A stretch of 64,000 nt of DNA, taken from the IMG/VR virus record IMGVR_UViG_3300028840_006907, positions 64,001 through 128,000 of that record, one strand, 5' to 3'. The notes under the pieces are model-generated. The model was not told the origin of the DNA and searched no databases. It was given only the letters and a program-made list of their open reading frames with translations. Origin of the DNA: a virus. A program made the translations under genes and the position numbers. Positions 12,020 to 56,902 of the stretch are shown one piece after another. Position 1 is the stretch's first letter; each line of letters opens with the position of its first letter.

Positions 12020-15018
12020 AGGGAAACCCCGCTCAGATGCAGGGAAGAAGATTTCATTAAGAAGTTTTAGGAAGAGCCCCGCAGAGGAGGAACCTCGCAA
12101 GATGCGGGGAAAAGGAACTTCAGGCAATTGGCTGGGATTAGCCCCGCGAAGGTGCGGGGAAAACAGTTTCCATGAACTATATTAGGGAGAGCCCCGTTGA
12201 CACGGGGAAAAACCCGTCTTTACTTAGTGAGATCGAGGAAGGAACAGCCCCGTTGATACGGGGATAAAATAATATGACTTTTACGAATCCTCTAGGGACA
12301 GCCCTGCAGAGTGCAGGGAAAAGTAACGTCTGGGAATTGTTTAGGATTAGCCCCGCGAAGGTGCGGGGAAAGCCATAGATTTTATATTGACACAGGAAAA
12401 ACCCCGGTATAGTCCGGGGAAAAGTACGTAATCAAGATGTAAGAGGATTAGACCCGGCGAGTCCGGGAAAAGATTGGCCCAATCACTATTAAGTAGGGTG
12501 GGATAGCCCCGCAGAATGCAGGGAATAGATGCCTCACTTCATACCACTGCGTCAACCCCAGTAGAGTCCGGGGAACATGAGTGTAAATCTCTGTCGTAGG
12601 TTCAACCCCGGAGAGATCCAGGGGAAATGGGTACAACTTTGTGTACAAGGGGTAGCCCCGGAGAAATCCGAGGAAAATGAGTGTAAATCTGTGTTGAGGG
12701 TCCAGCCCCGCTCAGTGCAGGGAATATTAAGGGTCAAAACCGGTTGCCCCTGCGTCAACCCCGGTGAAGTCCGGGGAACATGAGTGTAAATCTCTGTGGT
12801 AGGATCAACCCCGCAGAGTGCAGGGAAAAATTGAACTTTTTAATCAACCCTGTAACAGCCCCGGAGTCAGTTTTGACAAGTCCGGGGGAATATCACTTCG
12901 TAAAGGAGTGGCTGTCAAGGGGGCAACCCCACAGAGATGTGGGGGAAAGTAAGCCAACGTTCCGGCATAGGCATAGCCCCTGAATTTACAGAGGGCAATT
13001 TTTCCAGTGTCCAGAAGAAGATGCAGGGAGAACCCCGGAAAGTCCAGGGGAAAATGTGTCACAGAACAACTCTTTGTGATCTCCAGGGTGAACCTCGCAG
13101 AGGTGCGGGGGAAAAGTGTCAATGAATACCAGTATGAGTCAGCCCCGGTATAGCCCGGGAATAATTACTTCTAGTCTGATAGAAGGTGCAACCCCGGGAA
13201 GTCCGGGGAAATCGGTCATAGCCATCTGGACCAGGAAGAACCCCGGTGAGATCCGGGGAAAAGGACGTTTAAATCCTGACATAGTAGCTAACTGAGGCGT
13301 AGCTCCGGTCGGGTCAGCCCTGCAGAGAGCAGGGAACAAACATAGGTAATAAATCGGCACGTGACAGCCCCGCAGAGAGGCGGGGATATATAGCGTGAGT
13401 TGCAGGGTAAGGTTCAACCCTTGTTTACCAAGGGAAAAATACCGGCAGATAAGAATTTAGGATGACCCCCGGTGAAAGTCCGGGGAAAATAATTAATACG
13501 CAAAACAGCAGGGCCAGTCCCGCGAGATGCAGGGAATGTTCAGCCAGTTTGTGTAATATTTCAGGAGACGGTGGTGCAACCCTGTCAAGGACAGGGATAT
13601 GCAACATCTGTGGCTCTACGAGGATCAGCCCCGGCAAGTCCGGGGAATTATCTTTTTATAAATGCCAAAAATAACAGTTGGGAGGGGCCAATTCCGCTGA
13701 TGCAGAAAGACATTTCATAATTAATATATTTATGGAAGAGCCCCGGTGAAATCCGGGGAAGTCAAGTAATTACAGCTCGCTGACCACTGGGGGTAGCCCC
13801 GGTAAGATCCGGGGAAAAGTTTGTTTTGAAACAAACGCTAGGAACAGCCCCGCTCAGGTGCGGGAGAATCACTGCATATTTGGTTAATGGCCCCCCTGAG
13901 TCAATCCCGCTCAGGTGCGGGGAAAATAAAGAGATAGACTAATTCAATATGCAGGAAGAACCCCGCTATATGCAGGAAAATTTAAAAAGTATGGATATCT
14001 CCTTGAGTCAACCCCGGAGATCCAGGGAAATGTAGGCACTCGTTGTCCTTTGTCGAAGTGTGAAGGGCAAACCTCGTTGATACGAGGAACAAATTTAGTT
14101 TTACTTTTGAATAAAAGTGGTCAAGCCCCGCTCAGGTGCAGGGAATAGATAAGTATACCGACGATAGCCAGGACAGCACCTGTGGTTTAGCCCTGCATGT
14201 GCAGGGAATAGTTGAGTTGAAGATTGAAGAAAAAGATAAAGTAGGGTCAGCTCTGCATGTGCAGAGAATAGCCTTTCTTCAAGCGTTGACTTGGGAGTAG
14301 GTGGGGATCAGCCCTGCACATGCAGGGAATAGAATGGTGAATCAAATTCCATTTTGTCAAAGAACGGCGACAGCCCTGCCAGTGCAGGGAATATGATTTT
14401 AACGATGGTAAAATTGGGAAGGGGTCAGCCCTGCACATGCAGGGAATAGTCGCTAGTTCAAATCCAATCGCCCCGACAGGATCAGCCCTGCATACGCAGG
14501 GAATAGAAAATACTGACGATAAACTAGCGATATGGGATCAGCCCTGCATACGCAGGGATATAGCTTGACGAATGGCCGTTTTAATGCCAGGAGTAACCCC
14601 GCTGCGAGGAATAGTCATTTCAAATATATAGGTAAAGCCCCGCGAAAGAGCGGGGGTATAATATGGCGGATTTTGTTCTATTGGTGGAATCCGGGCCATC
14701 CCCGTAGATTGACACGGGGAGATCTTTTAGAAATCTACCAAGGTGCCTTTCCGGAGTCATCCCCGTATATACGGGGGAGATTTCAATTCAGGGAATTTCG
14801 GTACAAAATTGGTCGGTTTATCCCCGTATACACGGGGAATATTGTTTCAATAGGGCATAGCAGATCTAGGATCGGGGAATCCCCGCAGGGGCGGGGAACA
14901 TCTCGGATTTATTAATCAAATTCAAACGTTTTTCGGGGAATCCCCGCAGGGGCGGGGAACATTGTTTTAAGAGGTGGTAGTTACCTCGTAGGGGAATCCC
15001 CGCAGGGGCGGGGAACAT
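12020..15018 (-). CRISPR. CRISPR array 1: about 55 hairpin repeat units, three identical leader-proximal repeats, progressively divergent distal repeats
   Basis: Leader-proximal repeat (minus strand) ATGTTCCCCGCCCCTGCGGGGATTCCCC at 14874-14901, 14935-14962, 14991-15018 with 33- and 28-nt spacers; periodic CCCCGC/GCGGGG-type hairpins back to about 12020. Confidence 0.8.
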
Positions 15019-15127
15019 ACTAAGTCATAATGCCATTCAAATCAAAGGTTTATAGGAACCCTAATTTTCTACCAAAGAAAAATGTACTTGTCATGTATAA
15101 ATGTCAAAGAGCGTCAGAGAGAAATCC
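15019..15127 (-). promoter_or_regulatory. CRISPR leader 1 with conserved ~50-bp block shared with leader 2
   Basis: 15058-15112 nearly identical to 22627-22677; contains TTGACA on the minus strand. Confidence 0.5.
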
Positions 15128-17359
15128 CTAGTGGATATACCGAATCCATTCATATCGAATTTTCATCGTTTTATAAGGAGCTTTTTTTCTCCCTGGAAAT
15201 ATGTTTCCTTCAAAAAGGAAAAATTTTTGAACAATTTTAAATTCAGCGTTTGATGGTGTCAAGCTCTGTGGTGCATAATCCGAACGCCAGTAATTATTAC
15301 AATATATAAATTTTTCTTCTCTGTCTTTTTGTATAAGGCCCGGAAACACCACTAAAACTATCTTTTCGTTTTCAATAACAATATCCCCTTGATAAATAGC
15401 TATTTCTAAATCCAGACCATCCTGCTCTATCACACGAGCATATTTCGAGAGTTTCCCATCAATCTTTACTTTAGCTTTAGGGGGAATATCAAAAGTTATC
15501 CATTCACCTTTTATGTCCTTAATGCTTTGAATAGGTTTTTTAACTGGAATTTCTTGAAAGACATGATCTTGGTATTCTGCTTTTTTAAGGATTTCTCCAT
15601 CTTTTTCCATATTAAGCAATAAAGCCTTTTCCATGATGTCTTTAAGTTCATAGAGATCTTTTTCAGTTAAGGGCTCTTTTGTTCCGAATACGATGGAACC
15701 TACATTCTCTAATCGAGCGATTTTATCAAAACCCTGTTTCCGGACAAAGTCTATGGTAATATGTTCTATTTTTCTATTTCTTGAAAGTCTTATGATTCTT
15801 ACAAATTCAGTTTTAATTGTGTCTTTGAAATTATCAAAACTTAAATGATCTTCTACGTAGGGATGATACAAATCCGCTATAAGACTTAATAAAATTTCTA
15901 TGTCTTCAGGTTTATCCTGTTTACGGTTGTAATCATAAGCTTTAATAATTTCTTGTCTCATTTCCATTAATATATCAGGAGCCATTATTTCACTTAAACT
16001 GGTAGATCCTTTTTTGTCCCGATAAAAGGGAGCTGTTGGAAGTAAGGGAATCCTGATAGCAGCACAAAGTTCTGACATTACAATTGAGGTTAAGAACAAA
16101 TTCAATCTGTCTGAATATAATGCCCTGATATTATTACGTTCTTCTTTTTTAATAGGTGGAACATAAATGTATAACCATATTTTATCTTTTTTAGGGTAAC
16201 ATCTGAAAATACGAAACATTATTTGAGAGAAGGTCACCTGACTCTTTCCATAACTTGTATTATGTAAAACAGCAGCAGGAGGCCAATCATACCCTTCATA
16301 GAATATTCTGCAAGATACGGCGACCCAGTATTTTTTATGATTACGTCTCAATAACTCTCTATTTTTTTTCTGAGTTTCCGGTGTGACTAAATCCAGTACT
16401 TTGGACGCAGGATATATTTCGTGAATAGCTTTTAAATATTTTTTAAGGGTTCCTTCCTCTCTGAACCGGTTCCCCATGTCAGGTAATATGACAATGTGTC
16501 TTTGATCTTTGTGCTCTTTCATATATCTAATGATCTGAGTAAGGGGATCTTTCCTATAGTGAGTGAAACGGAAATTGAATTCTTTGATTTTTATGATTGA
16601 GAGATAGTCATTTAATGGGATAACCCATTTTTCAAAATGATGTTTATAAGCATTGGGGACTATTTCTCCTCTGTCTGTGCGGTGGTAAGTAGCTGTATAA
16701 AAATTTACGTTACAAGTAGGTTCATGGATGGTACATACATCTCTGACAAAATCACCCAAATGAGTGGAATCTAGTGGGGTTGATTTTGAATGATGGCATT
16801 CATCTACATGTACAGTTAAATTTCTAAGGGCTTTCTTTTTTTCATAGTTGGTTAATTTTTCCCAGGTCATGACAAACCCTCTATGGGTAGCTGTAGCAAT
16901 AGGGCCTGTTATATGTTTTTCATTGTACGGGTATTTTCGAGGATCTGCTAAAAGGAATTCTTTAAGTCCTTTAATGGATTGAGGGTTTTCACTATTGAAT
17001 TTATGTTCTTTTGGTACTTCCCACAATCTTACCATACCTTTATATTTGATTTTTATTTGTCTATTTTGGGATCTGCAGAAATTTTCACCTATTTCTATTG
17101 TTGGTGCGATAAAGATATGTTTTCGAGTATTTTTAGATATTATGATTTCATCCAGGGATATGCATACTGCTAAAAAAGTTTTGCCGACTCCCCCTGGTGC
17201 ATCAAAGATCATGTATCTGAATTTTTTCCCATATTCTTTTGCATTGCATTGCCAGCCAGAGGGTATCATGATCCCTGATTCAAGTTTTTTATTATAGGTA
17301 CCAAGGTCAACCGGTTCTATTTTAATAGATTGCTGGAAAAGCGGTAATAGCTTTTTCAT
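15128..17359 (-). CDS. SF2 helicase, Cas3-like helicase module without HD nuclease domain
   Basis: Walker A DAPGGVGKT and DECHH box; in-frame stop 18 codons upstream excludes an N-terminal extension; no HD dipeptide. Confidence 0.6.
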   Translation of the reverse strand: MKKLLPLFQQSIKIEPVDLGTYNKKLESGIMIPSGWQCNAKEYGKKFRYMIFDAPGGVGKTFLAVCISLDEIIISKNTRKHIFIAPTIEIGENFCRSQNRQIKIKYKGMVRLWEVPKEHKFNSENPQSIKGLKEFLLADPRKYPYNEKHITGPIATATHRGFVMTWEKLTNYEKKKALRNLTVHVDECHHSKSTPLDSTHLGDFVRDVCTIHEPTCNVNFYTATYHRTDRGEIVPNAYKHHFEKWVIPLNDYLSIIKIKEFNFRFTHYRKDPLTQIIRYMKEHKDQRHIVILPDMGNRFREEGTLKKYLKAIHEIYPASKVLDLVTPETQKKNRELLRRNHKKYWVAVSCRIFYEGYDWPPAAVLHNTSYGKSQVTFSQIMFRIFRCYPKKDKIWLYIYVPPIKKEERNNIRALYSDRLNLFLTSIVMSELCAAIRIPLLPTAPFYRDKKGSTSLSEIMAPDILMEMRQEIIKAYDYNRKQDKPEDIEILLSLIADLYHPYVEDHLSFDNFKDTIKTEFVRIIRLSRNRKIEHITIDFVRKQGFDKIARLENVGSIVFGTKEPLTEKDLYELKDIMEKALLLNMEKDGEILKKAEYQDHVFQEIPVKKPIQSIKDIKGEWITFDIPPKAKVKIDGKLSKYARVIEQDGLDLEIAIYQGDIVIENEKIVLVVFPGLIQKDREEKFIYCNNYWRSDYAPQSLTPSNAEFKIVQKFFLFEGNIFPGRKKAPYKTMKIRYEWIRYIH

Positions 17360-17382
17360 TGTCTTTTTCCTCTCAAATAAGT

Positions 17383-17412
17383 CCTGGAAAGCCTTTTCAG
17401 GGGCTTTCCAGG
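17383..17412 (-). other. 11-bp stem-loop between micro-ORF and helicase gene
   Basis: CCTGGAAAGCC / GGCTTTCCAGG inverted repeat with 8-nt loop, about 25 nt upstream of helicase ATG. Confidence 0.4.
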
Positions 17413-17444
17413 ATTAATGTACTGTGTATTCTATATCAACACTT

Positions 17445-17600
17445 TCAATCGTTTTTATCAATCTCCGTGGCTAATACCGACATAAATGACATTCCGGTTC
17501 CTCCTGGTAATTCAATAATAGAAGGTCTTTTGATGTTCTCTTCTAAATTCCTAGAAGCGAGTTGCCAAGAATAGGCTTTTATAGTTTTTGTATTATTCAT
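17445..17600 (-). CDS. micro-ORF (51 aa) between cas6e and helicase
   Basis: GGAGAT 8 nt upstream of ATG at 17600; no known motif. Confidence 0.25.
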   Translation of the reverse strand: MNNTKTIKAYSWQLASRNLEENIKRPSIIELPGGTGMSFMSVLATEIDKND

Positions 17601-17628
17601 TTTAAAATCTCCATATAAAAGGTTTATT

Positions 17629-18273
17629 TTAATAAGATTTATACGGTGCAATAAGCATCATACCACATCCGAAACCTTTACTCTTACCAATTCCATTATA
17701 AATAGTATTCACAAAAAGATTTTTATTGACTACCTGAAGGACTCCTCGTAAATCAATACTGAAAAAAGATACAACTTTACCATCTTTTTTTTTGAATTTA
17801 CAGAATTGAAAAGATTGAACGGAATGCTTTTGAATCATATTTTTAAAACCGTAACTTTGGCCACGTTTCTGAAGCCAATTCTTTGAGGATTCGTGAGCAA
17901 TGAAATTCCAATTATAGGGTTCATCAAGAACTTTCATTTCATTTGCCAGATCCGTCATGATTGAAACCTTTTTCCTGGTTTTCAATTTACAAACTTCGGC
18001 ATTGAGTCTGAGATCGTATTGAAGAAATATTCCAGATTTTAAATTATTTAAATCGAATACTTTTGTTTGTGTAGTGTATTCGTCCTCTGGAGGATTTGGT
18101 TTCTTTTTTGATATGATATAAAGTTCACCATTATAGAGATAATAAAGGAAATCTCTTACCCTGTTAGATCTTTGATCACCAAAAAATTCCCAGACTTTTT
18201 GATGAAGCTCATATATACCTTCGGTGGGAGAATATCTTCTCAAGCTGTCACTGTAAATTTTACTCAGAAACAT
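17629..18273 (-). CDS. cas6e: Cas6e (CasE) endoribonuclease
   Basis: Start set at internal Met (GGAGG RBS); MFLSKIY N-terminus and C-terminal GIGKSKGFGCGMM resemble E. coli CasE. Confidence 0.75.
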   Translation of the reverse strand: MFLSKIYSDSLRRYSPTEGIYELHQKVWEFFGDQRSNRVRDFLYYLYNGELYIISKKKPNPPEDEYTTQTKVFDLNNLKSGIFLQYDLRLNAEVCKLKTRKKVSIMTDLANEMKVLDEPYNWNFIAHESSKNWLQKRGQSYGFKNMIQKHSVQSFQFCKFKKKDGKVVSFFSIDLRGVLQVVNKNLFVNTIYNGIGKSKGFGCGMMLIAPYKSY

Positions 18274-18910
18274 TCGATACCTCCTTCCATCCCATATACT
18301 CAATTCGGGATCGGTATTGTTTGGGACCGGTTACCTGATCAAAACGTTGATTGCTTTTTACTATTTTGATACTGGTATCGGTACCTTCCCAAAATATTCG
18401 GTTCTTTTCACGCCCTTTAAGACTACCATTAAGAAATTCAGGAAGAGAGTACTGTTCAAACGCCTCTGAGAGGCTCTCAGCCTTAACGATCTTAGGATCG
18501 GGTGGTATGTCATAGGAACAGCATTTCCTTCCAAGAAAGGGGGTATAGATGGGCCTATTAAGGGCTTCCATTATTTTCTTCAAAGTATAGGGACAGTTTT
18601 CATTCTCCCATATACATACGGTAAAGATGGCATTGACTAGGTAAAATCTATTCGAGACAATTCCTGGTCCGACTCTGACAATATGGAAATCTTTTAGAAT
18701 AGTACCAGGATTATCTTCCCTACAGGCAAATCCTAGTTGGGCAATCTGAGTTAATTCTTTCACCATTTCTCTTGAGACTCCAAGAGAAGCAGCGATTAAC
18801 CCGCTTACGCCAGATTTGGTAGGGTGATCATCTGTCTTTCGGGTATTACCCTGAAGGGGGAGACCCCAGGCGGATAGAGTACCCGAAAGAAGGAATAATA
18901 AATAATTCAT
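18260..18910 (-). CDS. cas5e: Cas5e (CasD)
   Basis: MNYLLFLLSGTLSAWG and YTPFLGRK resemble E. coli CasD MRSYLILRLAGPMQAWG and YTPYLGRR. Confidence 0.8.
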   Translation of the reverse strand: MNYLLFLLSGTLSAWGLPLQGNTRKTDDHPTKSGVSGLIAASLGVSREMVKELTQIAQLGFACREDNPGTILKDFHIVRVGPGIVSNRFYLVNAIFTVCIWENENCPYTLKKIMEALNRPIYTPFLGRKCCSYDIPPDPKIVKAESLSEAFEQYSLPEFLNGSLKGREKNRIFWEGTDTSIKIVKSNQRFDQVTGPKQYRSRIEYMGWKEVSNVSE

Positions 18911-18933
18911 AATATTATAACTCCTGGTAACAA

Positions 18934-20019
18934 TTAGAAATCGATGAATTTAATAAGTTCGTTAAGTGATCCTTCTTTTGTGAGTACATTCAAGATCCTA
19001 TAATCCATTTCATGGTAACATGAATCAAAACTACTTTTCATGTCAAGAAGGGCTTTGACAGCATTTTCCATAACCGCAGGACCTTTAATAGGAGTATGGA
19101 AGGCTTGACAGAGACTTCGTGGGGCAGTTGGAGCTTTTTCGATCATAACGAATGCTGGCCATGTTTGACTATCAGCACATCTGTTTTTATTAGCTGAGGG
19201 GGATGAAGTGGTTAATACTTCGACTATCTGTCGGATGGTTTTGATAGCTAGTTCTTTATTACCTTGAAGATTTTTCGTTAAGAGCTTGGAATTGATTACA
19301 AAGAAACTATAATAGACACCCTGGGTAAAATAGAAATTATCTAGGTGACCTGAACCTTTGGTTCCTTCTAATCCAAGGTTATCGGTAGCTGTAAAATAGT
19401 CGGTTTGGACAGATCCTATATCATTGACAGTAAAAGCGAAATTTGAGGACAGTGAAGCTTCAACATCATATTGGGGCAGTTTTGCAATCATGCGACCGGT
19501 AAGGGCTGTTCTGATTCCTGTATTTTCTTTTAAAAAGAAGAATTCTTGATCAGTGGGTTTATGCCCCTCAATAATTTTGTCAATCAGTTCTTCAATATGT
19601 TGTCTTTCGCTCGGTTGAATTTTAATGGTTTCGGTTTTAAGAAGATCAACCTTTTTTTTCTTTTTCTTTGTATTTTTATCATCTTCTTTTTCAGTGTGCT
19701 TTTTGATATCAACAAAAGTACCAATAAATTTAAATGCGTATTCTTCAGCTTTTTTAGGTGATATTCCACCATCAATTAATCTTTTCTCGACATATTTTCC
19801 AATAAGAGGAGTCTGAAGACCTATATCGATTTCGCACCTTTCAAATAGAGCCTTGTTTAAATCATATTTTCGATTTTGTGAAGACGAATAACCTCGGTTG
19901 GTATCATTAAGTTTCATTGTTTTAGGACGTCCGTCCTGGCCTCGGTTTATGCTAGATACAGCTACACCAGTGAGAAGGTGAATTAACCAGTAGGGGTCTT
20001 TAATAATAGTTTTAGACAT
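18934..20019 (-). CDS. cas7e: Cas7e (CasC) backbone subunit
   Basis: 361 aa; N-terminal SSINRGQDG...SSQ pattern like Cas7e SxLNRDD...SSQ. Confidence 0.75.
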   Translation of the reverse strand: MSKTIIKDPYWLIHLLTGVAVSSINRGQDGRPKTMKLNDTNRGYSSSQNRKYDLNKALFERCEIDIGLQTPLIGKYVEKRLIDGGISPKKAEEYAFKFIGTFVDIKKHTEKEDDKNTKKKKKKVDLLKTETIKIQPSERQHIEELIDKIIEGHKPTDQEFFFLKENTGIRTALTGRMIAKLPQYDVEASLSSNFAFTVNDIGSVQTDYFTATDNLGLEGTKGSGHLDNFYFTQGVYYSFFVINSKLLTKNLQGNKELAIKTIRQIVEVLTTSSPSANKNRCADSQTWPAFVMIEKAPTAPRSLCQAFHTPIKGPAVMENAVKALLDMKSSFDSCYHEMDYRILNVLTKEGSLNELIKFIDF

Positions 20020-20045
20020 AAATACTCCTTGATATTTATTATTTA

Positions 20046-21989
20046 TTATATGTTATTTGAATATTCTCTTTCCCAGTAGAACTTGACATCTTTGCTCCAG
20101 TGGGCATACCCTTCCATGAAACTGATGATGTTAAATCCTTCCATTCGAGAAACAACATCAGCAAATACTTTCCAGTTTTTTTGTATATCCGTTTTATTGA
20201 AACTCATCATTTCGTCAACATGTCGGCGGTTAATTTTTTGAGAACCCATTTGGGCACCGAAAGATTGAGAAAAATCCAGATCCTTAGCTTTAAAAACAAT
20301 TAGTAGAAGAGGTACGAAAAGAGTCTTCATATCTTCTGATCTTAAAGCAGGGAAATGCATAGACATTTCTAAAATAAAATTCAAATAAAGGTCTTCATGT
20401 TTTAAGATATCGATGTCAAAACATCGGGTAAATACCCTATGTTTTTCTGTATTTCTAATAGTCCCGTACCAGGACAGGAATGGTTTGGTAAAGACCTGGT
20501 TAAAATGAGGTAGGTTTAATTTCCTGTATTCGATATGGGCGAAATTCTCATATTCTAATGGTTGTAGTTTAAGAGGTTTAACAACTTTTTTATTTAAGGT
20601 TTCGATAAATTGTTCCTTAAAATATTTCTGTAAACCTCTCTTTTCAGTACCTACATTTTTTTCAAATGTATCGAAAGCTTTAACTACCATCTTTTCCAAC
20701 CATTTTTCGATATTATGATTCTTGAGAACTTCATAGAAGTATTCTTCAGTTTCTGTCAGAAATTCGTGAAATATTAAAGGTTCGGTTTTATCAGTTCCCC
20801 AGAACTTTCTTATATAATTACAGGTATACCATCCTATAAGATATGAGTGTTCTCTGATATTTAAAGTAAACGCACTATCTTTATAGAGTTCTTCTGGGAT
20901 ATCGAATTTATTTTCCTCCCATCCAAAGAGTTTGGCTTTAGCCATATTATAACCGAAAGTCCATAATCCGAAATCAGTTATTCCAAGATATTCTCGGTTC
21001 TCCATGAAATGACTCACCACTAAAGCTGGAGTTAATTTTTTAGCTGGTAGTAGATAGGTCACAAGATCGAGATGGCTGGTAAAGTCCAGGGGTTTCCGGA
21101 AACCTGTTTCTTTGCCTTTTATAATGGGTGAAAGGATATGACGTGGTTTGACATAACAGTTACCATAATTCCTCGTTTTTATCTTTCTAACCATTAATTT
21201 GGAATGATTGCCACAGATAGTACATGATTCATCAAATTTATCAAAGATAAGATGAATACGTAGAGGCATTTCCCAGAGCGGGTAATAAGGATTCATCTCA
21301 TCCAGGGAAACAGTAGCTTTGTTTTTACTATCAACGGTATCACTAAGCCATGGGAGTGTTACACCTTTTGGATTTCCTCCGAATTCAAACATGGTCTTTT
21401 TAATAATAACATTAGACCATATTGTTTCCCATAACGTGGAACCGGTAATAATAGTGGTAAGAGAACCATTGGCACCGGCTGTTATCGAAGTACGGTATCC
21501 TTGGCCTCCCATAATGGCACTGAGTTGATTAAGATAAAGGGCAATTGTAGCACAGGATTGGCAAAAAGTATGTATCTTTGCTTTTTGGAAGAAATCTTTA
21601 CCAGCTTTAATTGTCGCTGTCCCTGGAGTATCAAAGAGGAGATTACCAACATTTACGATTCTTTCAAGGTCCTGTGGCCGTTTATCCTGTAAAAAACGAG
21701 GACCTTTGCCATCTAGTTCAAAGAGTTTTGGTTTAAGTTTTTCTAGGATGGCTTTTTGGTTTGGTGCTTTTTTGAATAGTTTTTTCCATTCTTTCTTACT
21801 TGTAGGAGCAAGATAAGTGTTGAAAAAACCTATGAGAAGCCGTACACCTACAGCATTGAAATCGGGTCTACCGAAATCGAGAGCTATTATAGGGTTATTA
21901 GGTTTTGAAGTTATTTTGTAGGGTGGAATGTTTTCCCTGGTACCGTCTTTTCGGATGACGGGGATCCAAGGGTCCTTAATTACATTCAT
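20046..21989 (-). CDS. cas8e: Cas8e (Cse1) large subunit with about 145-aa C-terminal extension
   Basis: MNVIKDPWIPV and CQSCATIALY match Cse1 DNWIPV and CGGCTAIALF; GGAGGT RBS. Confidence 0.8.
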   Translation of the reverse strand: MNVIKDPWIPVIRKDGTRENIPPYKITSKPNNPIIALDFGRPDFNAVGVRLLIGFFNTYLAPTSKKEWKKLFKKAPNQKAILEKLKPKLFELDGKGPRFLQDKRPQDLERIVNVGNLLFDTPGTATIKAGKDFFQKAKIHTFCQSCATIALYLNQLSAIMGGQGYRTSITAGANGSLTTIITGSTLWETIWSNVIIKKTMFEFGGNPKGVTLPWLSDTVDSKNKATVSLDEMNPYYPLWEMPLRIHLIFDKFDESCTICGNHSKLMVRKIKTRNYGNCYVKPRHILSPIIKGKETGFRKPLDFTSHLDLVTYLLPAKKLTPALVVSHFMENREYLGITDFGLWTFGYNMAKAKLFGWEENKFDIPEELYKDSAFTLNIREHSYLIGWYTCNYIRKFWGTDKTEPLIFHEFLTETEEYFYEVLKNHNIEKWLEKMVVKAFDTFEKNVGTEKRGLQKYFKEQFIETLNKKVVKPLKLQPLEYENFAHIEYRKLNLPHFNQVFTKPFLSWYGTIRNTEKHRVFTRCFDIDILKHEDLYLNFILEMSMHFPALRSEDMKTLFVPLLLIVFKAKDLDFSQSFGAQMGSQKINRRHVDEMMSFNKTDIQKNWKVFADVVSRMEGFNIISFMEGYAHWSKDVKFYWEREYSNNI

Positions 21990-22586: not shown

Positions 22587-22690
22587 ACTATAATATAATT
22601 AGTTGAAAATCAGAGAGTTACAAAGACCCTAATTTTCTACCAAAAAAAGTACTTGCCGTTTATAAATGTCAAAGAGCTTATCTTTAAAGG
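22587..22690 (-). promoter_or_regulatory. CRISPR leader 2
   Basis: 22627-22677 nearly identical to the array-1 leader block. Confidence 0.5.
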
Positions 22691-34425: not shown

Positions 34426-34502
34426 TGGTACCCCAATCAGGACTCTAACCTGAAATCTTTGGCTCCGGAAACCAACGCTTTATACAATTAAGCTATTGGG
34501 GC
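34426..34502 (-). tRNA. tRNA-Arg (anticodon CCG), CCA encoded
   Basis: Hand-folded cloverleaf: GCCCCAA/TTGGGGT acceptor, loop TTCCGGA, atypical T-loop. Confidence 0.5.
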
Positions 34503-34511
34503 ATTATAAGA

Positions 34512-34586
34512 TGGCGGTGCGTAAGGGAATCGAACCCTTGCCAGGAGATCGACAGTCTCCGGTCCTAACCACTGAACGAACGCACC
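34512..34586 (-). tRNA. tRNA-Asp (anticodon GTC), CCA encoded
   Basis: GGTGCGT/ACGCACC acceptor, loop CTGTCGA, T-arm GGTTCGATTCC. Confidence 0.7.
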
Positions 34587-34595
34587 GTATTTTTA

Positions 34596-34760
34596 TTAAT
34601 CAATTTTTTTATTTCCGATAAAAAGACCGCAGTCGCATTGCCGAGCCATTTTCGTTTTATTCTTTATTACAATGCCTATTGCTTTAATAGGCTTTTTACA
34701 AGTGTTGCAAATATTTTGCTGTGTCTTTTTGTCATGCTGTTTCACTGCTGTTTTAGCCAT
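34596..34760 (-). CDS. micro zinc-ribbon protein (54 aa)
   Basis: Hand-translated MAKTAVKQHDKK...CNTCKK...CDCG; AAGGAG RBS. Confidence 0.35.
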   Translation of the reverse strand: MAKTAVKQHDKKTQQNICNTCKKPIKAIGIVIKNKTKMARQCDCGLFIGNKKID

Positions 34761-34782
34761 TACTTGTACTCCTTAAATGTTA

Positions 34783-34856
34783 TGGCAGGGACGGTCAGAT
34801 TCGAACTGACATCGCCGGTTTTGGAGACCGGGTGCTTGACCGTTAGCGACGCCCCT
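34783..34856 (-). tRNA. tRNA-Trp (anticodon CCA), CCA encoded
   Basis: Loop CTCCAAA, T-arm GTCAG TTCGAAT CTGAC. Confidence 0.65.
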
Positions 34857-34871
34857 GTATTGACAAATTTT

Positions 34872-35045
34872 TCATGATTTGAACCATTCACTACAACCTT
34901 CGGCTAGTTCTAATAAATGAACACAAGGTTTTGTTTCTTTTGCCAGAACACAGCCACACACTGTACAAATTACCACAGCAGGTTTCAAATCATGTTTCTC
35001 AATTTCAGCGAATGCTTTCACTATATCATTCACTATATCATTCAT
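34872..35045 (-). CDS. micro Cys-rich protein (57 aa)
   Basis: Hand-translated MNDIVNDIVKAF...CTVCGC... Confidence 0.3.
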   Translation of the reverse strand: MNDIVNDIVKAFAEIEKHDLKPAVVICTVCGCVLAKETKPCVHLLELAEGCSEWFKS

Positions 35046-35062
35046 TTTTTCTCCGAATTATC

Positions 35063-35135
35063 TGGGCGCAGACGGACTTGAACCGCCCACGAATGGCTTA
35101 TGAGACCACTACTCTACCGACTGAGTTATACGCCC
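35063..35135 (-). tRNA. tRNA-Met (anticodon CAT)
   Basis: GGGCGTA acceptor, loop CTCATAA, T-loop TTCAAGT; no CCA. Confidence 0.65.
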
Positions 35136-35143
35136 TTGACTTA

Positions 35144-35221
35144 TGGCACACCCGGCACGATTTGAACGTGCGACTTCTTCGTTCGTGGCGAAGATCTCTA
35201 TCCGGACTGAGTTACGGGTGC
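35144..35221 (-). tRNA. tRNA-Arg (anticodon ACG), CCA encoded
   Basis: Loop CCACGAA, T-arm CACG TTCAAAT CGTG. Confidence 0.6.
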
Positions 35222-35227
35222 GTATTT

Positions 35228-35728
35228 TTATAAAAAAGTTTTATACGTTTTTTTATTAATGATATATGATAATGTTGATTTTGCTGATTTATATTCCTTT
35301 GCTAATTTATTTAAACTTTCTCCATTTTTATTTCTGTTAATTATAGATTCTATCTCTTTTTTTGTGAATTTTCTTAATTTATACGCAGCTTTAACTGCTT
35401 GCTCTTTTCTTTCTTTTTCAGGTATATCAAATGAATTCTCTGATCTTGTACCAATTGATATATTAGAATCATTGAAATTTAATCTATTTCTATCTAAGTG
35501 TCTAGTCTCAATCCCTTCTTCAAAAACTTTATCCCCAAATAAAAAGTATGCTTTTAATTTATGTACTTTTAAATTTTTAATCTTTTTGTTTACATAGATA
35601 TTTATGGTAGGGTAACCTTTTGAATAATGGAATCTTAAAGGTTTTCCCATTGGCCCAATAACTTCATTTTTATCATTAAAATGATATCCTTTTTTTACAG
35701 CTATTTTTAAGACATCATTATTTTTCAT
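35228..35728 (-). CDS. HNH-family homing endonuclease
   Basis: Phage HNH-like GYHFNDKNEVIGPMGKPLRFH block and C-terminal helix-turn-helix; sits inside the tRNA cluster. Confidence 0.5.
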   Translation of the reverse strand: MKNNDVLKIAVKKGYHFNDKNEVIGPMGKPLRFHYSKGYPTINIYVNKKIKNLKVHKLKAYFLFGDKVFEEGIETRHLDRNRLNFNDSNISIGTRSENSFDIPEKERKEQAVKAAYKLRKFTKKEIESIINRNKNGESLNKLAKEYKSAKSTLSYIINKKTYKTFL

Positions 35729-35748
35729 ATATTAATTTTTCTTTCTAA

Positions 35749-35821
35749 TAGGGGTACGGGGAGTCGAACCCCGGTCGTGGGAGAGAAAATCCCATATCCT
35801 AAGCCATTAGAAGATACCCCC
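35749..35821 (-). tRNA. tRNA, anticodon probably TTC (Glu), atypical position 37
   Basis: GGGGGTA acceptor, T-arm CGGGG TTCGACT CCCCG, loop TTTTCTC. Confidence 0.5.
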
Positions 35822-35866
35822 ATAAAATAAAAAAGCTCCTGTCTGGTTCTCACCCGACAGGAGCTT
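35822..35866 (-). terminator. rho-independent terminator-like hairpin
   Basis: 10-bp stem AGCTCCTGTC/GACAGGAGCT followed on the minus strand by TTTTTTATTTT. Confidence 0.55.
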
Positions 35867-47800: not shown

Positions 47801-47872
47801 TGGTATACACAACTTAAAGAGCGGTCCTTCATGTTAACGTAGGTAATTTTCTCTGTAAGTTGTTGATTTATA

Positions 47873-48282
47873 TGGAGGTGAGGAGAGTTGAACTCCTGTC
47901 CGCGAAGGTATCTTGAGTAAACCTCTACATGTTTAGTCTATGGTTTAAATCTTATTCATAATCACGTTCACAGACAAACTTAATTAAGAACCAGTCTCTA
48001 GTCTCATTCATTGGTCAAGACTCCTCAATGAACCAGAACCCGTTTGGCTATCCGGAATTAACAGGGTTCAGTTAAAACCGGATTTGTCGTTTTTTGTTTA
48101 AACGACGGCTTCTTCTGCTTGATGAATAGCAGCAAGGTTAAGTGCTGAAAACATCGCACAGAAGTTAACTGTATTAGTTTTTTCAGTTATTATTGAAATC
48201 GGCTTTTTTACGAGGCCAACCGATTAACCTCGACATGCAGTTTACATTTCAACTCATCACGTCGAAAACCAAGTACACCCCC
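47873..48282 (-). ncRNA. ssrA: tmRNA (SsrA)
   Basis: Minus strand starts GGGGGUGUACUUGGUUUUCGACG, has GCAUGUCGAGG...GGUUGGCCUCGUAAAAAAGCCG, ends GGACAGGAGUUCAACUCUCCUCACCUCCA; 620-bp ORF-free gap. Confidence 0.65.
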
Positions 48283-48382
48283 AGAATTATCAAAGAACTA
48301 TTAATAGTATAAACTATTTCAATGAAAATATCAAATGTTTTTATCTTTATAAGGCTGTTTTTTAATTAGACTAAATACTAAT

Positions 48383-53794: not shown

Positions 53795-53868
53795 GCCGGA
53801 ATAGCTCAGTTGGCCAGAGCGGTTGATTTGTAATCAATTCGTCGGGGGTTCGAATCCCTCTTTCGGCT
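53795..53868 (+). tRNA. tRNA-Thr (anticodon TGT)
   Basis: GCCGGAA/TTTCGGC acceptor, loop TTTGTAA, T-arm GGGGG TTCGAAT CCCTC. Confidence 0.65.
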
Positions 53869-53934
53869 TGTAAATTTATTTGGAAAGGAGATGACATGAT
53901 GGCGAAAGTGTGATACTTAAACAAAGGAGCCGTT

Positions 53935-54234
53935 ATGTCTCATCCGAAAAACAAAAGAGAACGTTTTCTTATTGGGAAACGTAAAGGGGAAAAACGTTCT
54001 TATTTGTATTGGAGTGGTTATTCCAATTGGTTTGACCTTCCAGATTATTTCTATAAGAAAAGCCCTCGTAATAAGGGTGTTGAGTATGAGGAGAAAAAGA
54101 GATTACTCGAAAAGAGTAAAGCAATAAGAAGGGATACAACAAAGTTATGCTCTTGTCCTCAGTGTGGAAATCCGCGCAGACATTTTAAAGAGCGTACTTT
54201 ACAAGAAAAAAGATATTTTACTGCGGGGGGCTAG
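53935..54234 (+). CDS. basic zinc-finger protein
   Basis: 99 aa, CSCPQCG motif; 3' end overlaps next tRNA. Confidence 0.45.
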   Translation: MSHPKNKRERFLIGKRKGEKRSYLYWSGYSNWFDLPDYFYKKSPRNKGVEYEEKKRLLEKSKAIRRDTTKLCSCPQCGNPRRHFKERTLQEKRYFTAGG

Positions 54235-54294
54235 GCCTGGTGGTCTGGCAGGTCTCATAAGCCTGCAACTCAAGTTCAATTCTTGGCCCCGCAA
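54222..54294 (+). tRNA. tRNA with CAT anticodon (Met or Ile2)
   Basis: TGCGGGG/CCCCGCA acceptor, loop CTCATAA, T-loop TTCAATT. Confidence 0.5.
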
Positions 54295-54314
54295 ATGCAT
54301 ATAAAGGGGAAATA

Positions 54315-54683
54315 ATGGGAATGGATATACATGAGTGTTTTGAATATAAATTAAAATCATTTAATGAAATGGTTGCAAAGATCAATGAGAAACCGAAAGA
54401 AGATGAAGAGATCGATCTTGATAAACCTTATATCAGTCAATGGGATCATTTTGAGAGCTTCTTGAGGGAATTAATCTCTGATGATCACAGTCGGTTTAAA
54501 AGTGCTATTTTATGGCTTTTCTTTGCTGATGAAGAATTAGAGTTGCATGAAAAGATGAAAAACTTGTTTAACATATTAACAGATTTTGACGATAAACAAT
54601 TGATCTCTATGGTTTATGATTCGGGTTGTGATCGAGTGAAAGTTGATTTTGATAAATCGGAAAGTATAATTCATATGGAATAA
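54315..54683 (+). CDS. hypothetical acidic protein
   Basis: 122-aa ORF. Confidence 0.45.
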   Translation: MGMDIHECFEYKLKSFNEMVAKINEKPKEDEEIDLDKPYISQWDHFESFLRELISDDHSRFKSAILWLFFADEELELHEKMKNLFNILTDFDDKQLISMVYDSGCDRVKVDFDKSESIIHME

Positions 54684-54689
54684 AAATGG

Positions 54690-54765
54690 GGGCCGGAATG
54701 TTCCAAGGGGGCGAGAATGCCTTGCAAGCAATCTGCGGTGAGTTCGATTCTCACTCGGTCCACCA
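54690..54765 (+). tRNA. tRNA-Ala (anticodon TGC), CCA encoded
   Basis: G3-U70 wobble in acceptor stem, loop CTTGCAA, T-arm GTGAG TTCGATT CTCAC. Confidence 0.6.
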
Positions 54766-54919
54766 TAAGTAAAATAACAAAATCTTTCAAAAGGAAGTAG
54801 GCTTAAGAGTAGCCACTTTAATGAGTGATGAAAGGCGATGTGCACACGAATTTCGTGGAGTAGTTATCCGAATAGTCTTTGGTGTAACAACACACCTTTT
54901 GAAAGATTATTAATATAAT

Positions 54920-54994
54920 GCGAGTGTAGTTCAATGGCAGAACCCCACCCTTCCAAGGTGGTTGTTGTGAGTTCAAATCTCATCACTCGCTCCA
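54920..54994 (+). tRNA. tRNA-Gly (anticodon TCC), CCA encoded
   Basis: GCGAGTG/CACTCGC acceptor, loop CTTCCAA. Confidence 0.7.
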
Positions 54995-55001
54995 AATTTA
55001 T

Positions 55002-55076
55002 GCGGTAGTAGCTCAATGGTGGAGTTCCTCTTTGCCAAGGAGGAGGTTATCGGTTCAAGCCCGATCTACCGCTCCA
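55002..55076 (+). tRNA. tRNA-Gly (anticodon GCC), CCA encoded
   Basis: GCGGTAG/CTACCGC acceptor, loop TTGCCAA. Confidence 0.7.
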
Positions 55077-55166
55077 GGTCAAAGGCTCTGGCAGGTTGCC
55101 TTAAATAAAATGGGGTGTGGGTACCTAGGCACTTCTCACATCTCTGCCTGACCTGATTAAATTTAC

Positions 55167-55245
55167 GGGCGCGTAGCCTAGCTGGTTAGGGCACCTGTTT
55201 TACACGCAGGAGATTTCGTAGGTTCAAGTCCTACCGCGCCTACCA
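55167..55245 (+). tRNA. tRNA-Val (anticodon TAC), CCA encoded
   Basis: Loop TTTACAC, T-arm GTAGG TTCAAGT CCTAC; 7-nt variable region. Confidence 0.55.
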
Positions 55246-55253
55246 TAAATCAA

Positions 55254-55328
55254 GCCGGAGTAGCTCAGAGGCAGAGCAACGCTCTCGTAAAGCGTAGGTC
55301 AAGGGTTCAAGTCCCTTTTCCGGCTCCA
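55254..55328 (+). tRNA. tRNA-Thr (anticodon CGT), CCA encoded
   Basis: Stem ACGCT/AGCGT, loop CTCGTAA. Confidence 0.65.
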
Positions 55329-55424
55329 TTATGAAAGAAGAAATAATATGCCAAAAGCAGAAAGGGCAGATGCCCATTAACTATCTCTGGAAAAACAATT
55401 GATGGAAATTTCGTTGTTAAGGGT

Positions 55425-55655
55425 GTGTTTCCATTATTCTCTTCATTAACAGGCTTACCTCTTGAAGATATCCTAGAAGTTTTAAAACAGAATAATATGA
55501 TTGTGGATTGGCTGGATTTTTATGACCAGGCAATGGAAGAGAATTGGAAACCGAAACGGACTTTATTGAAAATTCGTGATTCGGTCGGAGAGGTATATGG
55601 ATCTAAGGTAGGAGAAGAGATCATGAAAAAATTTAAAATTTTTCGGGATATTTGA
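55425..55655 (+). CDS. hypothetical small protein
   Basis: 76-aa ORF. Confidence 0.4.
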   Translation: MFPLFSSLTGLPLEDILEVLKQNNMIVDWLDFYDQAMEENWKPKRTLLKIRDSVGEVYGSKVGEEIMKKFKIFRDI

Positions 55656-55705
55656 TATTCTAGTCTCGTATAATATTTATAGGGATATTTAAATATAAAT
55701 AATAA

Positions 55706-56290
55706 ATGGAGGGAAATATGGTAAATAAAGATCCAGAAGATGTGGCTTTATTCGACATGGATGGCACTCTCTGTGACTACGAGAAAGGACTTATAAAGAG
55801 CTTGGAACAACTCAGGTCACCAATGGAGCCTCCTGTAACGAAACCACCTTCAAAAAGTTCCCCGAACTATTTAAGGGTACGTGCGGATCTGGTACGTACG
55901 AATGAAGATTGGTATGTTAACCTTGATCGATTTGAACTTGGTTTTGATATCTGGAATATTGCTGAAGAACTCGATTATACCAGAATGATTTTAACCCAAG
56001 GCCCGAAACGAAATCCATTCGCATGGTCTGGGAAAAAGATGTGGATCGATAAGCATCTGGGGACGGATGTTGGCATCACCATCACGCGAGATAAAGGGTT
56101 AGTGTATGGACGTGTTCTTGTAGATGACTACCCAGGATATATCAATCGTTGGTTGGAATGGCGTAGGAACGGGTTGGTAGTAATGCCAGCTAGTAGAATT
56201 AATGGTGATTTCAAGCATCCTCAGGTTATCCGATATGACGGGAGTAATTTAAATGAAGTCAGAGAAAGAATGATTGCAGTGAAGAGGTAA
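55706..56290 (+). CDS. HAD-superfamily hydrolase (5'-nucleotidase-like)
   Basis: Motif I FDMDGTL. Confidence 0.5.
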   Translation: MEGNMVNKDPEDVALFDMDGTLCDYEKGLIKSLEQLRSPMEPPVTKPPSKSSPNYLRVRADLVRTNEDWYVNLDRFELGFDIWNIAEELDYTRMILTQGPKRNPFAWSGKKMWIDKHLGTDVGITITRDKGLVYGRVLVDDYPGYINRWLEWRRNGLVVMPASRINGDFKHPQVIRYDGSNLNEVRERMIAVKR

Positions 56291-56291
56291 T

Positions 56292-56693
56292 ATGAGAATG
56301 GTTTATTGTTTTCAAGATTTTGGGTCACACGGATTAATATATCCTCTTGAAGGTGATAATACTCCTAATATGGTTTTTTATATTGAGGAAAATGAAAACG
56401 GTATTTTAGATAATGCATATTTAATGAATACTATTTTTTGTAAAACAAAAGAGATATTCAATACAATTCTTAATAGAATTAAGAATGATCTATTTGAAGT
56501 GAAATATAAAGATTATTCGATTATGTTTAAAGCAATGAAATCGGATAAATCTTATGTGGGTAAATTAAAAAAGCCTTCGAATTCTCTATGGACATTAACA
56601 GAAATTGAAAAAAAAGATACAATCACTCAAATAGATTTATTTATAAAATGTGGCATTGTTCTAATAGGTTATTCTGAGGGAAAAGTAAAATGA
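56292..56693 (+). CDS. hypothetical protein
   Basis: 133-aa ORF. Confidence 0.4.
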   Translation: MRMVYCFQDFGSHGLIYPLEGDNTPNMVFYIEENENGILDNAYLMNTIFCKTKEIFNTILNRIKNDLFEVKYKDYSIMFKAMKSDKSYVGKLKKPSNSLWTLTEIEKKDTITQIDLFIKCGIVLIGYSEGKVK

Positions 56694-56902
56694 ATAATTT
56701 AAATAATTCCGAAGATTTAATTCAAAATTTATCTAATAGATCGCTTTTTTTATTAGATCAAGTCTCTGTTTTGAAAAACGATGAAGATTTTCTACTTTTA
56801 TGTTTACATATTGATTCATTGAAATCTTTCGAAAAAAAGATATTTATTAAATTACTTGAGAAAGAAAATATGGATTTTTATGAAAGATTTAAAAATTTAT
56901 GA
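56690..56902 (+). CDS. hypothetical small protein
   Basis: 70-aa ORF, overlapping stop/start. Confidence 0.35.
   Translation: MNNLNNSEDLIQNLSNRSLFLLDQVSVLKNDEDFLLLCLHIDSLKSFEKKIFIKLLEKENMDFYERFKNL

Follow-up and report, generated by a model that had tools for sequence, protein, structure and literature searches.

We analysed a 64,000-nucleotide (nt) stretch of viral DNA (positions 64,001 to 128,000 of IMG/VR record IMGVR_UViG_3300028840_006907; hereafter the window), which carries two arrays of tRNA genes on opposite strands and, inside the plus-strand array, a 206-nt RNA (62859-63064, plus) that resembles the catalytic domain of bacterial RNase P RNA. The whole window was scanned with ARAGORN (default and relaxed settings) and with Rfam at gathering thresholds (29 bits for the tRNA model, RF00005). 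At default settings ARAGORN called 21 tRNAs and one transfer-messenger RNA (tmRNA), and Rfam returned 19 tRNAs shared with ARAGORN (45-69 bits), a 104-nt tRNA-like match (30.1 bits), and the tmRNA. Altogether we count 23 solid tRNA genes (6 on the minus strand at 34426-35822 and 17 on the plus strand at 53795-63649), one weak Ala-like gene, and one aberrant tRNA-like element. An initial annotation of this DNA, in which tRNAs were called by hand, had proposed about 25 tRNA genes in two clusters on opposite strands, six of them minus and 18 plus with one further tRNA-like element, and our calls agree with it: ARAGORN recovered most of the hand-called genes rather than rejecting them, all six minus-strand genes were called by both ARAGORN and Rfam above the gathering score, and on the plus strand 17 genes are solid and one is weak, with a single tRNA-like element besides. 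Two RNA genes were absent from that annotation, namely a tmRNA (47870-48282, minus) and the RNase P-like RNA that is the main subject here.

A reduced RNase P-like RNA in the plus-strand tRNA array

When the plus cluster was scanned permissively with Rfam, 62862-63061 matched RNaseP_arch (46.8 bits, E 8e-11), the full model span (positions 1-288) being covered in 200 nt. The alignment retains conserved region (CR) I (GAGGAAGCUC), CR-IV (AGAUAAAUG), and CR-V (ACAGAAUCCUGGCUA), and its roughly 117 deleted model positions are those of the specificity domain (S-domain). The helices are P1 (62859-62870/63053-63064), P2 (62873-62878/63025-63030), P3 (62882-62896), P4 (62903-62911, with a bulged U at 62906, pairing with 63042-63049), and P5 (62912-62915/62957-62960); CR-I (GAGGAA) lies at 62898-62903, CR-IV at 63017-63025, and CR-V (ACAGAA) at 63036-63041. 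A stump hairpin of 29 nt between the P5 strands (62925-62953) takes the place of the S-domain, and a P15/16-like arm occupies 62964-63012. The RNA folds better than 200 of 200 shuffles (z = -2.8). Its P4 is AGC(U)CAGGA/UCCUGGCU; the register and the bulged U are those of the E. coli helix, AAG(U)CCGGG/CCCGGCUU.

Every element of the universal catalytic core is present (P1-P4, a P4 with bulged U, CR-I, CR-IV, and CR-V), and the further marks of bacterial type A (RF00010: S-domain P7-P14, CR-II, and CR-III) are missing. The likeness to type-A rnpB extends to the succession P1-P2-P3, the bulged-U P4 pseudoknot, GAGGAA in J3/4, a P15-like arm followed by GGGU(A/U)G, AGAU(G/A)AAUG before the 3′ strand of P2, and ACAGAA followed by the P4 3′ strand and P1. 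Unlike type-A rnpB, the window RNA has a hairpin of about 30 nt for the whole S-domain (P7-P14, CR-II/III), lacks P18, measures 206 rather than 377 nt, scores below the gathering threshold, and reads GAGGAAGCUCAGG rather than GAGGAAAGUCCGG at CR-I, a difference that is compensated in the P4 3′ strand. Its sequence marks 62859-63064 as homologous to bacterial type-A RNase P RNA and cut down to the catalytic domain.

Relatives in viral and metagenomic contigs

A scan of viral contigs with a 14-mer (TGAGGAAGCTCAGG) gave more than 120 loci, all of which were chance matches except one contig, L001, and was replaced by two-anchor DNA patterns, which retrieved further members in viral contigs and JGI metagenomes. 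Blastn with three family members as queries against 50,697 GenBank phage records returned only LR745206.1 (‘uncultured phage’, 634,780 bp, an unannotated record), which carries a family member, and a mis-filed Salmonella rnpB. Searched with a strict pattern, the only one used for this purpose, a collection of 185,579 bacterial and archaeal species, each represented by one genome, yielded no true copy; the 16 cellular matches were chance matches in high-GC bacteria, without the other anchors and without a match to the covariance model described below.

Alignment of the raw sequences with MAFFT and RNAalifold misaligned P1-P3 and was replaced by a hand-drawn structure of the window RNA and that of contig L153, from which the covariance model R1 was built (P1, P2, P3, P5, a two-helix ‘stump’, and the P15/16-like arm; the P4 pseudoknot was treated separately). 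A cmsearch with R1 recovered 24 copies at 23 loci; the core is complete in about 22, and nothing was recovered from 16 bacterial control loci or from the chance loci. The roughly 22 distinct relatives were found only in viral or metagenome contigs, and their GC content ranges from 27% to 60%. RNaseP-T (RF02357) was never the best match within the clan; the best was always RNaseP_arch or RNaseP_bact_a.

We measured covariation on the 24-sequence alignment, P4 included, against 500 shuffles and against controls in which pairing partners were slid. Standard pairs were formed by 94.8% of cells (vs. 65.3% in shuffles; 0/500 reach the observed value), a fraction inflated by the fitting of the alignment to the model structure, which does not inflate the compensatory pair types. 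Double-sided changes occurred at 47 of 52 pairs (shuffle mean 32.7), and the covariation score was 0.577 (vs. 0.151 when shuffled, 0/500; 0.04-0.08 with partners slid). At each position of P2, four to six different standard pairs are found; the RNA of L001 differs from that of the window by compensatory changes in P1, P2, and P5 and has additional hairpins; the P4 of LR745206.1, ACU(U)CGACA/UGUCGGGU, has four pairs changed on both sides and fully compensated; and the final P4 pair is A-U, G-C, or C-G depending on the member. GAGGAA, the bulged U of P4, ACAGAA, and AGAUAAAUG are kept invariant.

Several members point to the origin of the family. Over its last 40 nt, the L067 RNA shares 87.5% identity with the rnpB gene annotated (class A) in 5425 of 5426 complete E. 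coli genomes, and the best Rfam model is RNaseP_bact_a for both L067 (49.7 bits) and L208 (72.8 bits, E 3e-22). The L208 RNA (338 nt) aligns over the whole RF00010 model and retains a reduced S-domain, a CR-II-like ACAGAAA, and a CR-III-like GGAUGAA; P18-like GNRA hairpins are retained by some members, and the shortest (L199, L202, L206, and L209) measure about 160 nt. These sequences suggest that the family descends from bacterial type-A RNase P RNA and was shortened step by step within phage genomes.

Individual members show further peculiarities. The copy in L159 (1736-1957, minus) is apparently without P3 and seems to form its P2 with a segment downstream of the P4 3′ strand, possibly a topological rearrangement; L201 has two copies 300 nt apart (1882-2065 and 2371-2622, minus).

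Most of the copies are embedded in tRNA arrays, across many huge-phage contigs. A tRNA gene on the same strand lies within 100 nt of 14 of the 23 copies, often at 0-5 nt on both sides, and within 1.2 kb of 18 of the 23; in the window, the RNA is separated by 13 nt from the CCA end of tRNA-Cys upstream and by 4 nt from the tRNA-like element downstream. Other structured RNAs adjoin the mini RNase P RNA and tRNAs in some contigs, namely a GOLLD RNA in L208 (3479-3941, minus; 172 bits, above gathering), a tmRNA in L134 (1020-1390, plus; 119 bits), and a sub-threshold match to the Y-RNA-like YrlA in L185 (1299-1413, minus). In L197, a viral contig of 501,337 bp and 27% GC that has a family member, ARAGORN called a tRNA with anticodon CTA (an amber suppressor, labelled ‘Pyl’), which hints at stop-codon recoding in that phage.

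An aberrant tRNA-like element follows the RNA

The 107-nt element at 63069-63175 (plus; Rfam tRNA, 30.1 bits) resembles a class II Ser-type tRNA in its acceptor, D, variable, and T arms and in G73 and CCA, and an insertion of about 17 nt turns its anticodon arm into a rod of 9 bp + 3 bp in the minimum-free-energy fold. By position and sequence it is the orthologue of the tRNA-Ser(TGA) of L153 and L001, with which it shares D-arm and acceptor, and a normal tRNA-Ser(TGA) follows it at 63187. A functional decoder has a 7-nt loop on a 5-bp stem, and here the loop can have only 6 or 8 nt; because the modelled anticodon arm is a rod without a 7-nt loop, the element is predicted to be unable to decode. 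It may persist as a processing handle that fixes the 3′ end of the RNase P-like RNA, or may alternatively be a substrate of seryl-tRNA synthetase with another role.

ARAGORN found this element only by allowing an 11-nt ‘intron’ in a ‘tRNA-Cys’ (option -i), a call that we rejected because introns of bacterial and phage tRNAs are group I introns of hundreds of nt. The same option placed a 7-nt intron in a ‘tRNA-Leu-AAG’ at 63563-63649, likewise rejected, the gene being a plain class II tRNA-Ser(CGA). At the position of the aberrant element, L001 carries a 140-amino-acid (aa) Cys-rich HNH-type open reading frame (ORF; 7438-7860, plus; ...CRNCHGEINEG), the second homing-endonuclease insertion seen in these arrays.

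The plus-strand array

Fifteen genes of the plus cluster were called by ARAGORN at default settings, and tRNA-Tyr(GTA) and tRNA-Ser(CGA) were added by relaxed ARAGORN or Rfam class II alignments. The array begins with tRNA-Thr(TGT) (53795-53868; 66.5 bits in Rfam), a tRNA with anticodon CAT and an initiator-like C1xA72 mismatch (54224-54294; only 22.7 bits), and the weak tRNA-Ala(TGC)-like gene (54690-54765), which has G3:U70 and a 3-bp anticodon stem and was found by relaxed ARAGORN only, with no Rfam match. It continues with tRNA-Gly(TCC) (54920-54994; 67.3 bits), tRNA-Gly(GCC) (55002-55076; 62.5 bits), tRNA-Val(TAC) (55167-55245; 62.3 bits), and tRNA-Thr(CGT) (55254-55328; 67.3 bits), and, further on, tRNA-Phe(GAA) (60768-60843; 60.2 bits) and tRNA-Ile(GAT) (60871-60946; 62.1 bits). 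The class II tRNA at 61734-61819 (tRNA-Leu; 53.3 bits) does read AAG, with A34 in the loop CUAAGGA, as had been pointed out from the letters alone, and the same gene is kept in L001. It is followed by a Cys-rich micro-ORF of 54 aa (61834-61998, plus; internal repeat CNCC...C / CDCC...C), tRNA-Lys(TTT) (62078-62150; 69 bits), tRNA-Lys(CTT) (62160-62236; 66.5 bits), the class II tRNA-Ser(GCT) (62256-62344; 32.9 bits in an alignment to the Rfam Sec model), and tRNA-Cys(GCA) (62768-62845; 60.6 bits), whose CCA end precedes the RNase P-like RNA. Beyond the aberrant element lie tRNA-Ser(TGA) (63187-63275; ARAGORN) and tRNA-His(GTG) (63353-63431; 58.1 bits), in which the encoded G-1 of the initial annotation is indeed found (63353, facing C73). 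The last two genes are tRNA-Tyr(GTA), which is of class II, the bacterial type, with no encoded CCA (63460-63547; relaxed ARAGORN, Rfam 25.5 and 20.8 bits), and the class II tRNA-Ser(CGA) with loop UUCGAAA (63564-63649; Sec model, 32.6 bits), whose L001 orthologue was called Ser-CGA.

Across the window, CCA is encoded in 19 of 25 tRNA genes, and ARAGORN confirmed the duplicated isoacceptors that had been claimed for Gly, Lys, Thr, Arg, and Ser. The order Phe-Ile-[R2K ATP-grasp]-Leu(AAG)-Lys-Lys-Ser-Cys-...-Ser-His-Tyr-Ser is shared by the window, L001, and L153, the latter two being IMG/VR and JGI contigs syntenic with this array. The R2K-clade ATP-grasp gene inside the array (window 60966-61732, plus; L001 4678-5469) matches phrog_7313 from profile position 69 onward; it is a single ORF of 263 aa in L001 and is apparently split into ORFs of 73 and 196 aa in the window, which may reflect a frameshift or programmed slippage. 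Another Cys-rich ORF, containing CDDDCKNCDDD, lies between the plus-strand tRNAs at about 62361-62603 (plus). Between Tyr and Ser-CGA, L001 has a tRNA-Sec-like gene with anticodon TCA (8313-8411, plus; Rfam tRNA-Sec 64.3 bits, gathering 47) that the window lacks, and which could be a phage opal-suppressor or a selenocysteine tRNA.

tmRNA and a shared upstream motif

The tmRNA (47870-48282, minus) was called by ARAGORN and matches the full Rfam model RF00023 at 159.9 bits (cut-off 47 bits). Its predicted tag (...FSALNLAAIHQAEEAVV, then a stop) has no stop after LAA, ...FSALNLAA continuing into IHQAEEAVV before the stop, and ARAGORN labelled it ‘Tag not identified’. The motif TTCATTGAAAT lies 34 nt upstream of the tmRNA 5′ end. 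In the general form TTCTTTGA(A/C)AT this motif is enriched in the window (28 matches with at most one mismatch vs. 10.3 expected; 0/100 shuffles reach this number). Its sites include 62847-62857, 63309-63319, 48316-48326 (minus), 15101-15111 (minus), and 22666-22676 (minus); tRNA-His and the tmRNA each have it some 34 nt before their 5′ ends, P1 of the RNase P-like RNA has it only 2 nt upstream, and it also precedes a repeat array and a Cascade operon described below. The motif could be the -35 part of a phage promoter.

The minus-strand cluster

All genes of this cluster lie on the minus strand. The outermost are tRNA-Arg(CCG) (34426-34502; Rfam 62.9 bits) and tRNA-Asp(GTC) (34512-34586; 60.6 bits), both with encoded CCA and both, like the other tRNAs of the cluster, called by ARAGORN; tRNA-Trp(CCA) (34783-34856; 48.5 bits), a tRNA with anticodon CAT, a G1-C72 pair (elongator Met or Ile2), and no encoded CCA (35063-35135; 59.9 bits), and tRNA-Arg(ACG) (35144-35221; 45.4 bits) follow. 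The two tiny Cys-rich ORFs that had been seen among these tRNAs are present at 34596-34760 (54 aa, CxxC...CxC, with an AAGGAG ribosome-binding site) and 34872-35045 (57 aa, CxxCxC...C...C), neither with a PHROG match. The proposed HNH-family endonuclease corresponds to the ORF at 35228-35728 (166 aa, with a C-terminal helix-turn-helix), a putative homing-type enzyme that matches phrog_59 (E 5.4e-15) and five further HNH phrogs; Pfam HNH_3 gives 19.8 bits, under the 24.8 cut-off. The last gene is tRNA-Glu(TTC) (35748-35822; 48.7 bits), with G1-U72 and no encoded CCA, and its loop UUUUCUC carries the pyrimidine at position 37 (U37) that the initial annotation had remarked on. A search for relatives of the cluster by way of its NUDIX neighbour found none, and three matches to the 17-mer of the tRNA-Glu U37 anticodon arm were rejected as chance, having no tRNAs.

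The window as part of a huge phage genome

A window protein maps to JGI contig Ga0180437_10000019 (388,651 bp); the window itself has 35% GC. We found no close GenBank phage for it, and because no virion genes were seen in the 64-kb window, its phage nature rests on context. Phage-type genes are present (an amidase, PHROG-only families, and the putative HNH endonuclease), as are auxiliary genes for a GDP-mannose dehydratase, a NUDIX protein, a sulfotransferase, and an intein-containing radical SAM protein. The earlier assignment to a jumbo phage holds, given the size of the source contig (>200 kb), the phage-type genes, and the synteny of the array with IMG/VR viral contigs. We regard the two clusters as genuine tRNA gene arrays of a huge (~389 kb) tailed-phage-like genome infecting a bacterium, which with the tmRNA make up a set of translation RNAs carried by the phage, a bacterial host being indicated because the tRNA-Tyr is of class II, the tRNA-His has an encoded G-1, and a C1xA72 initiator-like tRNA and a tmRNA are present.

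The phage tRNA set covers 17 amino acids. Cognate tRNAs exist for codons that are rare in the phage (CGG, 8% of Arg; TCG, 6% of Ser; ACG, 7% of Thr), and the commonest Arg (AGA, 44%) and Leu (TTA, 36%) codons have no cognate tRNA in the window. The data do not favour codon-usage compensation as a sufficient explanation. The tRNAs are accompanied by an RNase P RNA homologue and a tmRNA, and one of them is initiator-like; all this has the look of a module for general autonomy in translation, not of a supplement aimed at particular codons. Stop-codon recoding was considered for the window and set aside: reassigning any one stop raised the coding density only marginally, from 0.74 to 0.77-0.81, and the standard code was therefore assumed.

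Two other features of the window deserve mention. The radical SAM gene (7669-9762, plus) is split by an intein with a LAGLIDADG homing endonuclease domain (Pfam Radical_SAM, Intein_splicing, and LAGLIDADG_3). At 12025-15018 there are about 3 kb of degenerate hairpin repeats, not a clean CRISPR array, in three sub-arrays with periods of ~50, 55-62, and 56-61 nt, whose stems covary (CCCCGG/CCGGGG, CCCCGC/GCGGGG, and CCCTGC/GCAGGG). They adjoin minus-strand genes at 15128-21989 for a ResIII helicase, Cas6e, Cas5, Cas7, and Cas8e/Cse1, with no Cas1 or Cas2 seen; the whole is a type I-E-like Cascade carried by the phage, whose repeats are unusually divergent and whose spacers are short.

Discussion

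In the mechanism that we propose, transcription of the plus-strand array would give polycistronic precursors; 3′ processing of tRNA-Cys would produce the 5′ end of the mini RNase P RNA, an RNase P cut at the 5′ end of the downstream tRNA-like element would produce its 3′ end, and the RNA would be released in this way because tRNAs abut both its sides. It would then partner with host RnpA, or with a phage protein, and cleave the 5′ leaders of phage pre-tRNAs, and the phage would thereby have its own capacity for tRNA 5′ maturation during infection. Bacterial-type RNase P RNA recognises the CCA end, and that so many of the genes encode it agrees with substrate recognition of the bacterial type by the catalytic domain. 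We think it probable, if by no means certain, that phage tRNA arrays are here combined with a mini RNase P RNA that would serve as a catalytic subunit and process pre-tRNA 5′ ends to the benefit of the phage. Evenly balanced, in our estimation, is the wider proposal that huge phages encode minimal S-domain-less RNase P ribozymes, from ~340 down to ~160 nt, derived from type A and excised from tRNA arrays, which would be catalytically active alone or with host RnpA and would make tRNA 5′ maturation host-independent or different in specificity.

Several observations weigh against such activity. The window RNA scores under the Rfam gathering threshold in clan CL00002 (46.8 vs. 84 bits), as do its relatives (28-73 vs. 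84-100 bits, yet E 1e-6 to 1e-22); no family member is annotated because all fall below these thresholds, and the paired fraction in our alignment is inflated as described. The S-domain, the normal binder of the tRNA T-loop, is absent from the window RNA, and constructs without it have much lower efficiency. The second copy in L201 and the copy in L198 (6696-6905) have no recognisable CR-I, and not all copies need be functional. No RnpA-like protein was detected in the 64-kb window of the ~389 kb (RNR motif in open frames and phmmer, a weak test), and the only earlier viral RNase P-like RNA that we found, from camelpox, was inactive in vitro (PMC3001073). This precedent, the loss of the substrate-binding S-domain, and the two copies with degenerate CR-I all lend weight to an alternative in which the RNA is not a catalyst and serves instead as a decoy or regulator, binding host RnpA or pre-tRNAs and so modulating or stopping host RNase P, or else is an inactive relic. 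RnpA contacts RNase P RNA at P2-P4, J18/2, and J2/4, and the conserved P2-P4, J18/2, and J2/4 of the phage RNA coincide with this region. A decoy, however, would equally block maturation of the 20+ tRNAs of the phage itself, in whose midst the RNA lies; the residues that are invariant are those of the catalytic core (GAGGAA, the bulged U of P4, ACAGAA, and AGAUAAAUG); the geometry is upheld by compensatory changes in very divergent phages, whose GC content spans the range given above; and the graded series from the S-domain-bearing L208 to the 160-nt forms looks like the streamlining of an enzyme. Because the maturation of the phage's own tRNAs would be blocked and the conserved residues are catalytic ones, we judge a decoy less likely than the ribozyme and consider a non-catalytic RNA unlikely.

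A plainer account would see only a tRNA repertoire that compensates for a codon mismatch, with the extra RNA as an incidental spacer or a decaying fragment of a host rnpB. Arrays of tRNA genes are in themselves an already known, common feature of huge phages (PMC7162821), the phage is AT-rich (35% GC), and many of its tRNAs read codons that abound in phage genes (AAA, GAA, GGA, ACA, and GTA). However, the repertoire includes cognates of the rare codons CGG, TCG, and ACG and lacks those of AGA and TTA in the window, decay would not give 47 of 52 compensated pairs over ~22 divergent phages, and a mere spacer would not keep the core motifs of RNase P; we hold this account to be quite improbable. 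It is very improbable, finally, that the window belongs to a bacterial chromosome, a megaplasmid, or another element whose cell would own these RNAs as reduced translation genes. No virion structural genes were identified in the 64-kb window, a Cascade-type CRISPR-Cas module is carried, and some large plasmids have similar suites of translation genes (Al-Shayeb et al., PMC7162821), all of which would suit such an origin; yet the relatives were found in IMG/VR viral contigs and in a curated phage genome of 635 kb, the strict pattern found no true family copy in the 185,579 species-representative genomes, the window contains a putative HNH homing endonuclease, an amidase, and PHROG-only proteins and no rRNA or ribosomal protein genes, and tRNAs spaced by 0-15 nt with homing endonucleases are typical of phages.

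Several known systems resemble the phage RNA or its setting. The type T RNase P RNA of Pyrobaculum and other Thermoproteaceae (Lai et al. 2010) has reportedly lost nearly all of the S-domain and kept the catalytic domain in ~200 nt. Type T is archaeal and chromosomal and is the only RNase P RNA of its cell, working with archaeal proteins, whereas the phage RNAs bear type-A bacterial signatures, are viral, would come in addition to the host enzyme, and go down to ~160 nt. Engineered RNase P RNAs of B. subtilis and E. coli that consist only of the catalytic domain keep cleavage activity, especially with the protein subunit; they have the same architecture as the window RNA, but they are artificial, whereas the deletion in the phages is natural and maintained. 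Bacteriophage T4 has 8 tRNAs and a GIY-YIG enzyme rather than an HNH enzyme, and its species 1 and 2 RNAs are not known to be RNase P-like. The T4 tRNA region likewise holds a homing endonuclease gene, for SegB (PMC2330249), and yields stable RNAs other than tRNAs from the same precursor. The camelpox/orthopoxvirus RNase P-like RNA (Jarrous and Gopalan 2010, PMC3001073) is also virus-encoded and resembles bacterial and archaeal RNase P RNA, but it comes from a eukaryotic virus without tRNA genes and is described as having only ‘some secondary structure similarity’ and no activity in vitro, whereas the phage family keeps all conserved regions of the catalytic domain and sits inside tRNA arrays. 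Huge phages of more than 200 kb share with the window their dense tRNA arrays (dozens of genes), tmRNA, and CRISPR-Cas modules, and RNase P does not come up in the survey that describes them (0 occurrences; Al-Shayeb et al. 2020, PMC7162821). We found no report of a phage RNase P RNA in the full-text literature, where most subscription journals were out of reach; such RNAs are not mentioned in a 2023 survey of structured RNAs in IMG/VR (PMC10690425), a 2024 history of RNase P (PMC11143913), or a 2026 study of RNase P evolution (PMC12974513).

If huge phages do carry active ribozymes of this kind, they would give the first example of a functional RNase P encoded by a virus, and their RNAs would be the smallest of bacterial type so far known. 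Standard pipelines miss the family, whose scores lie below gathering thresholds, and a dedicated covariance model would annotate its members in viromes. The natural reduction series, from ~340 nt with a reduced S-domain through ~206 nt to ~160 nt, lets the needs of catalysis and substrate choice be tested, and with them the dispensability of the S-domain in vivo. For the phage, possible gains from an additional RNase P lie in its tightly packed arrays, its atypical tRNAs (Leu-AAG and Glu-U37), and host shut-off, and the question is raised of how the phage handles host RnpA. The mini RNase P RNA would add a tRNA 5′-maturing ribozyme to the translation functions that viruses carry, among them tRNAs, synthetases, tmRNA, and ribosomal proteins.

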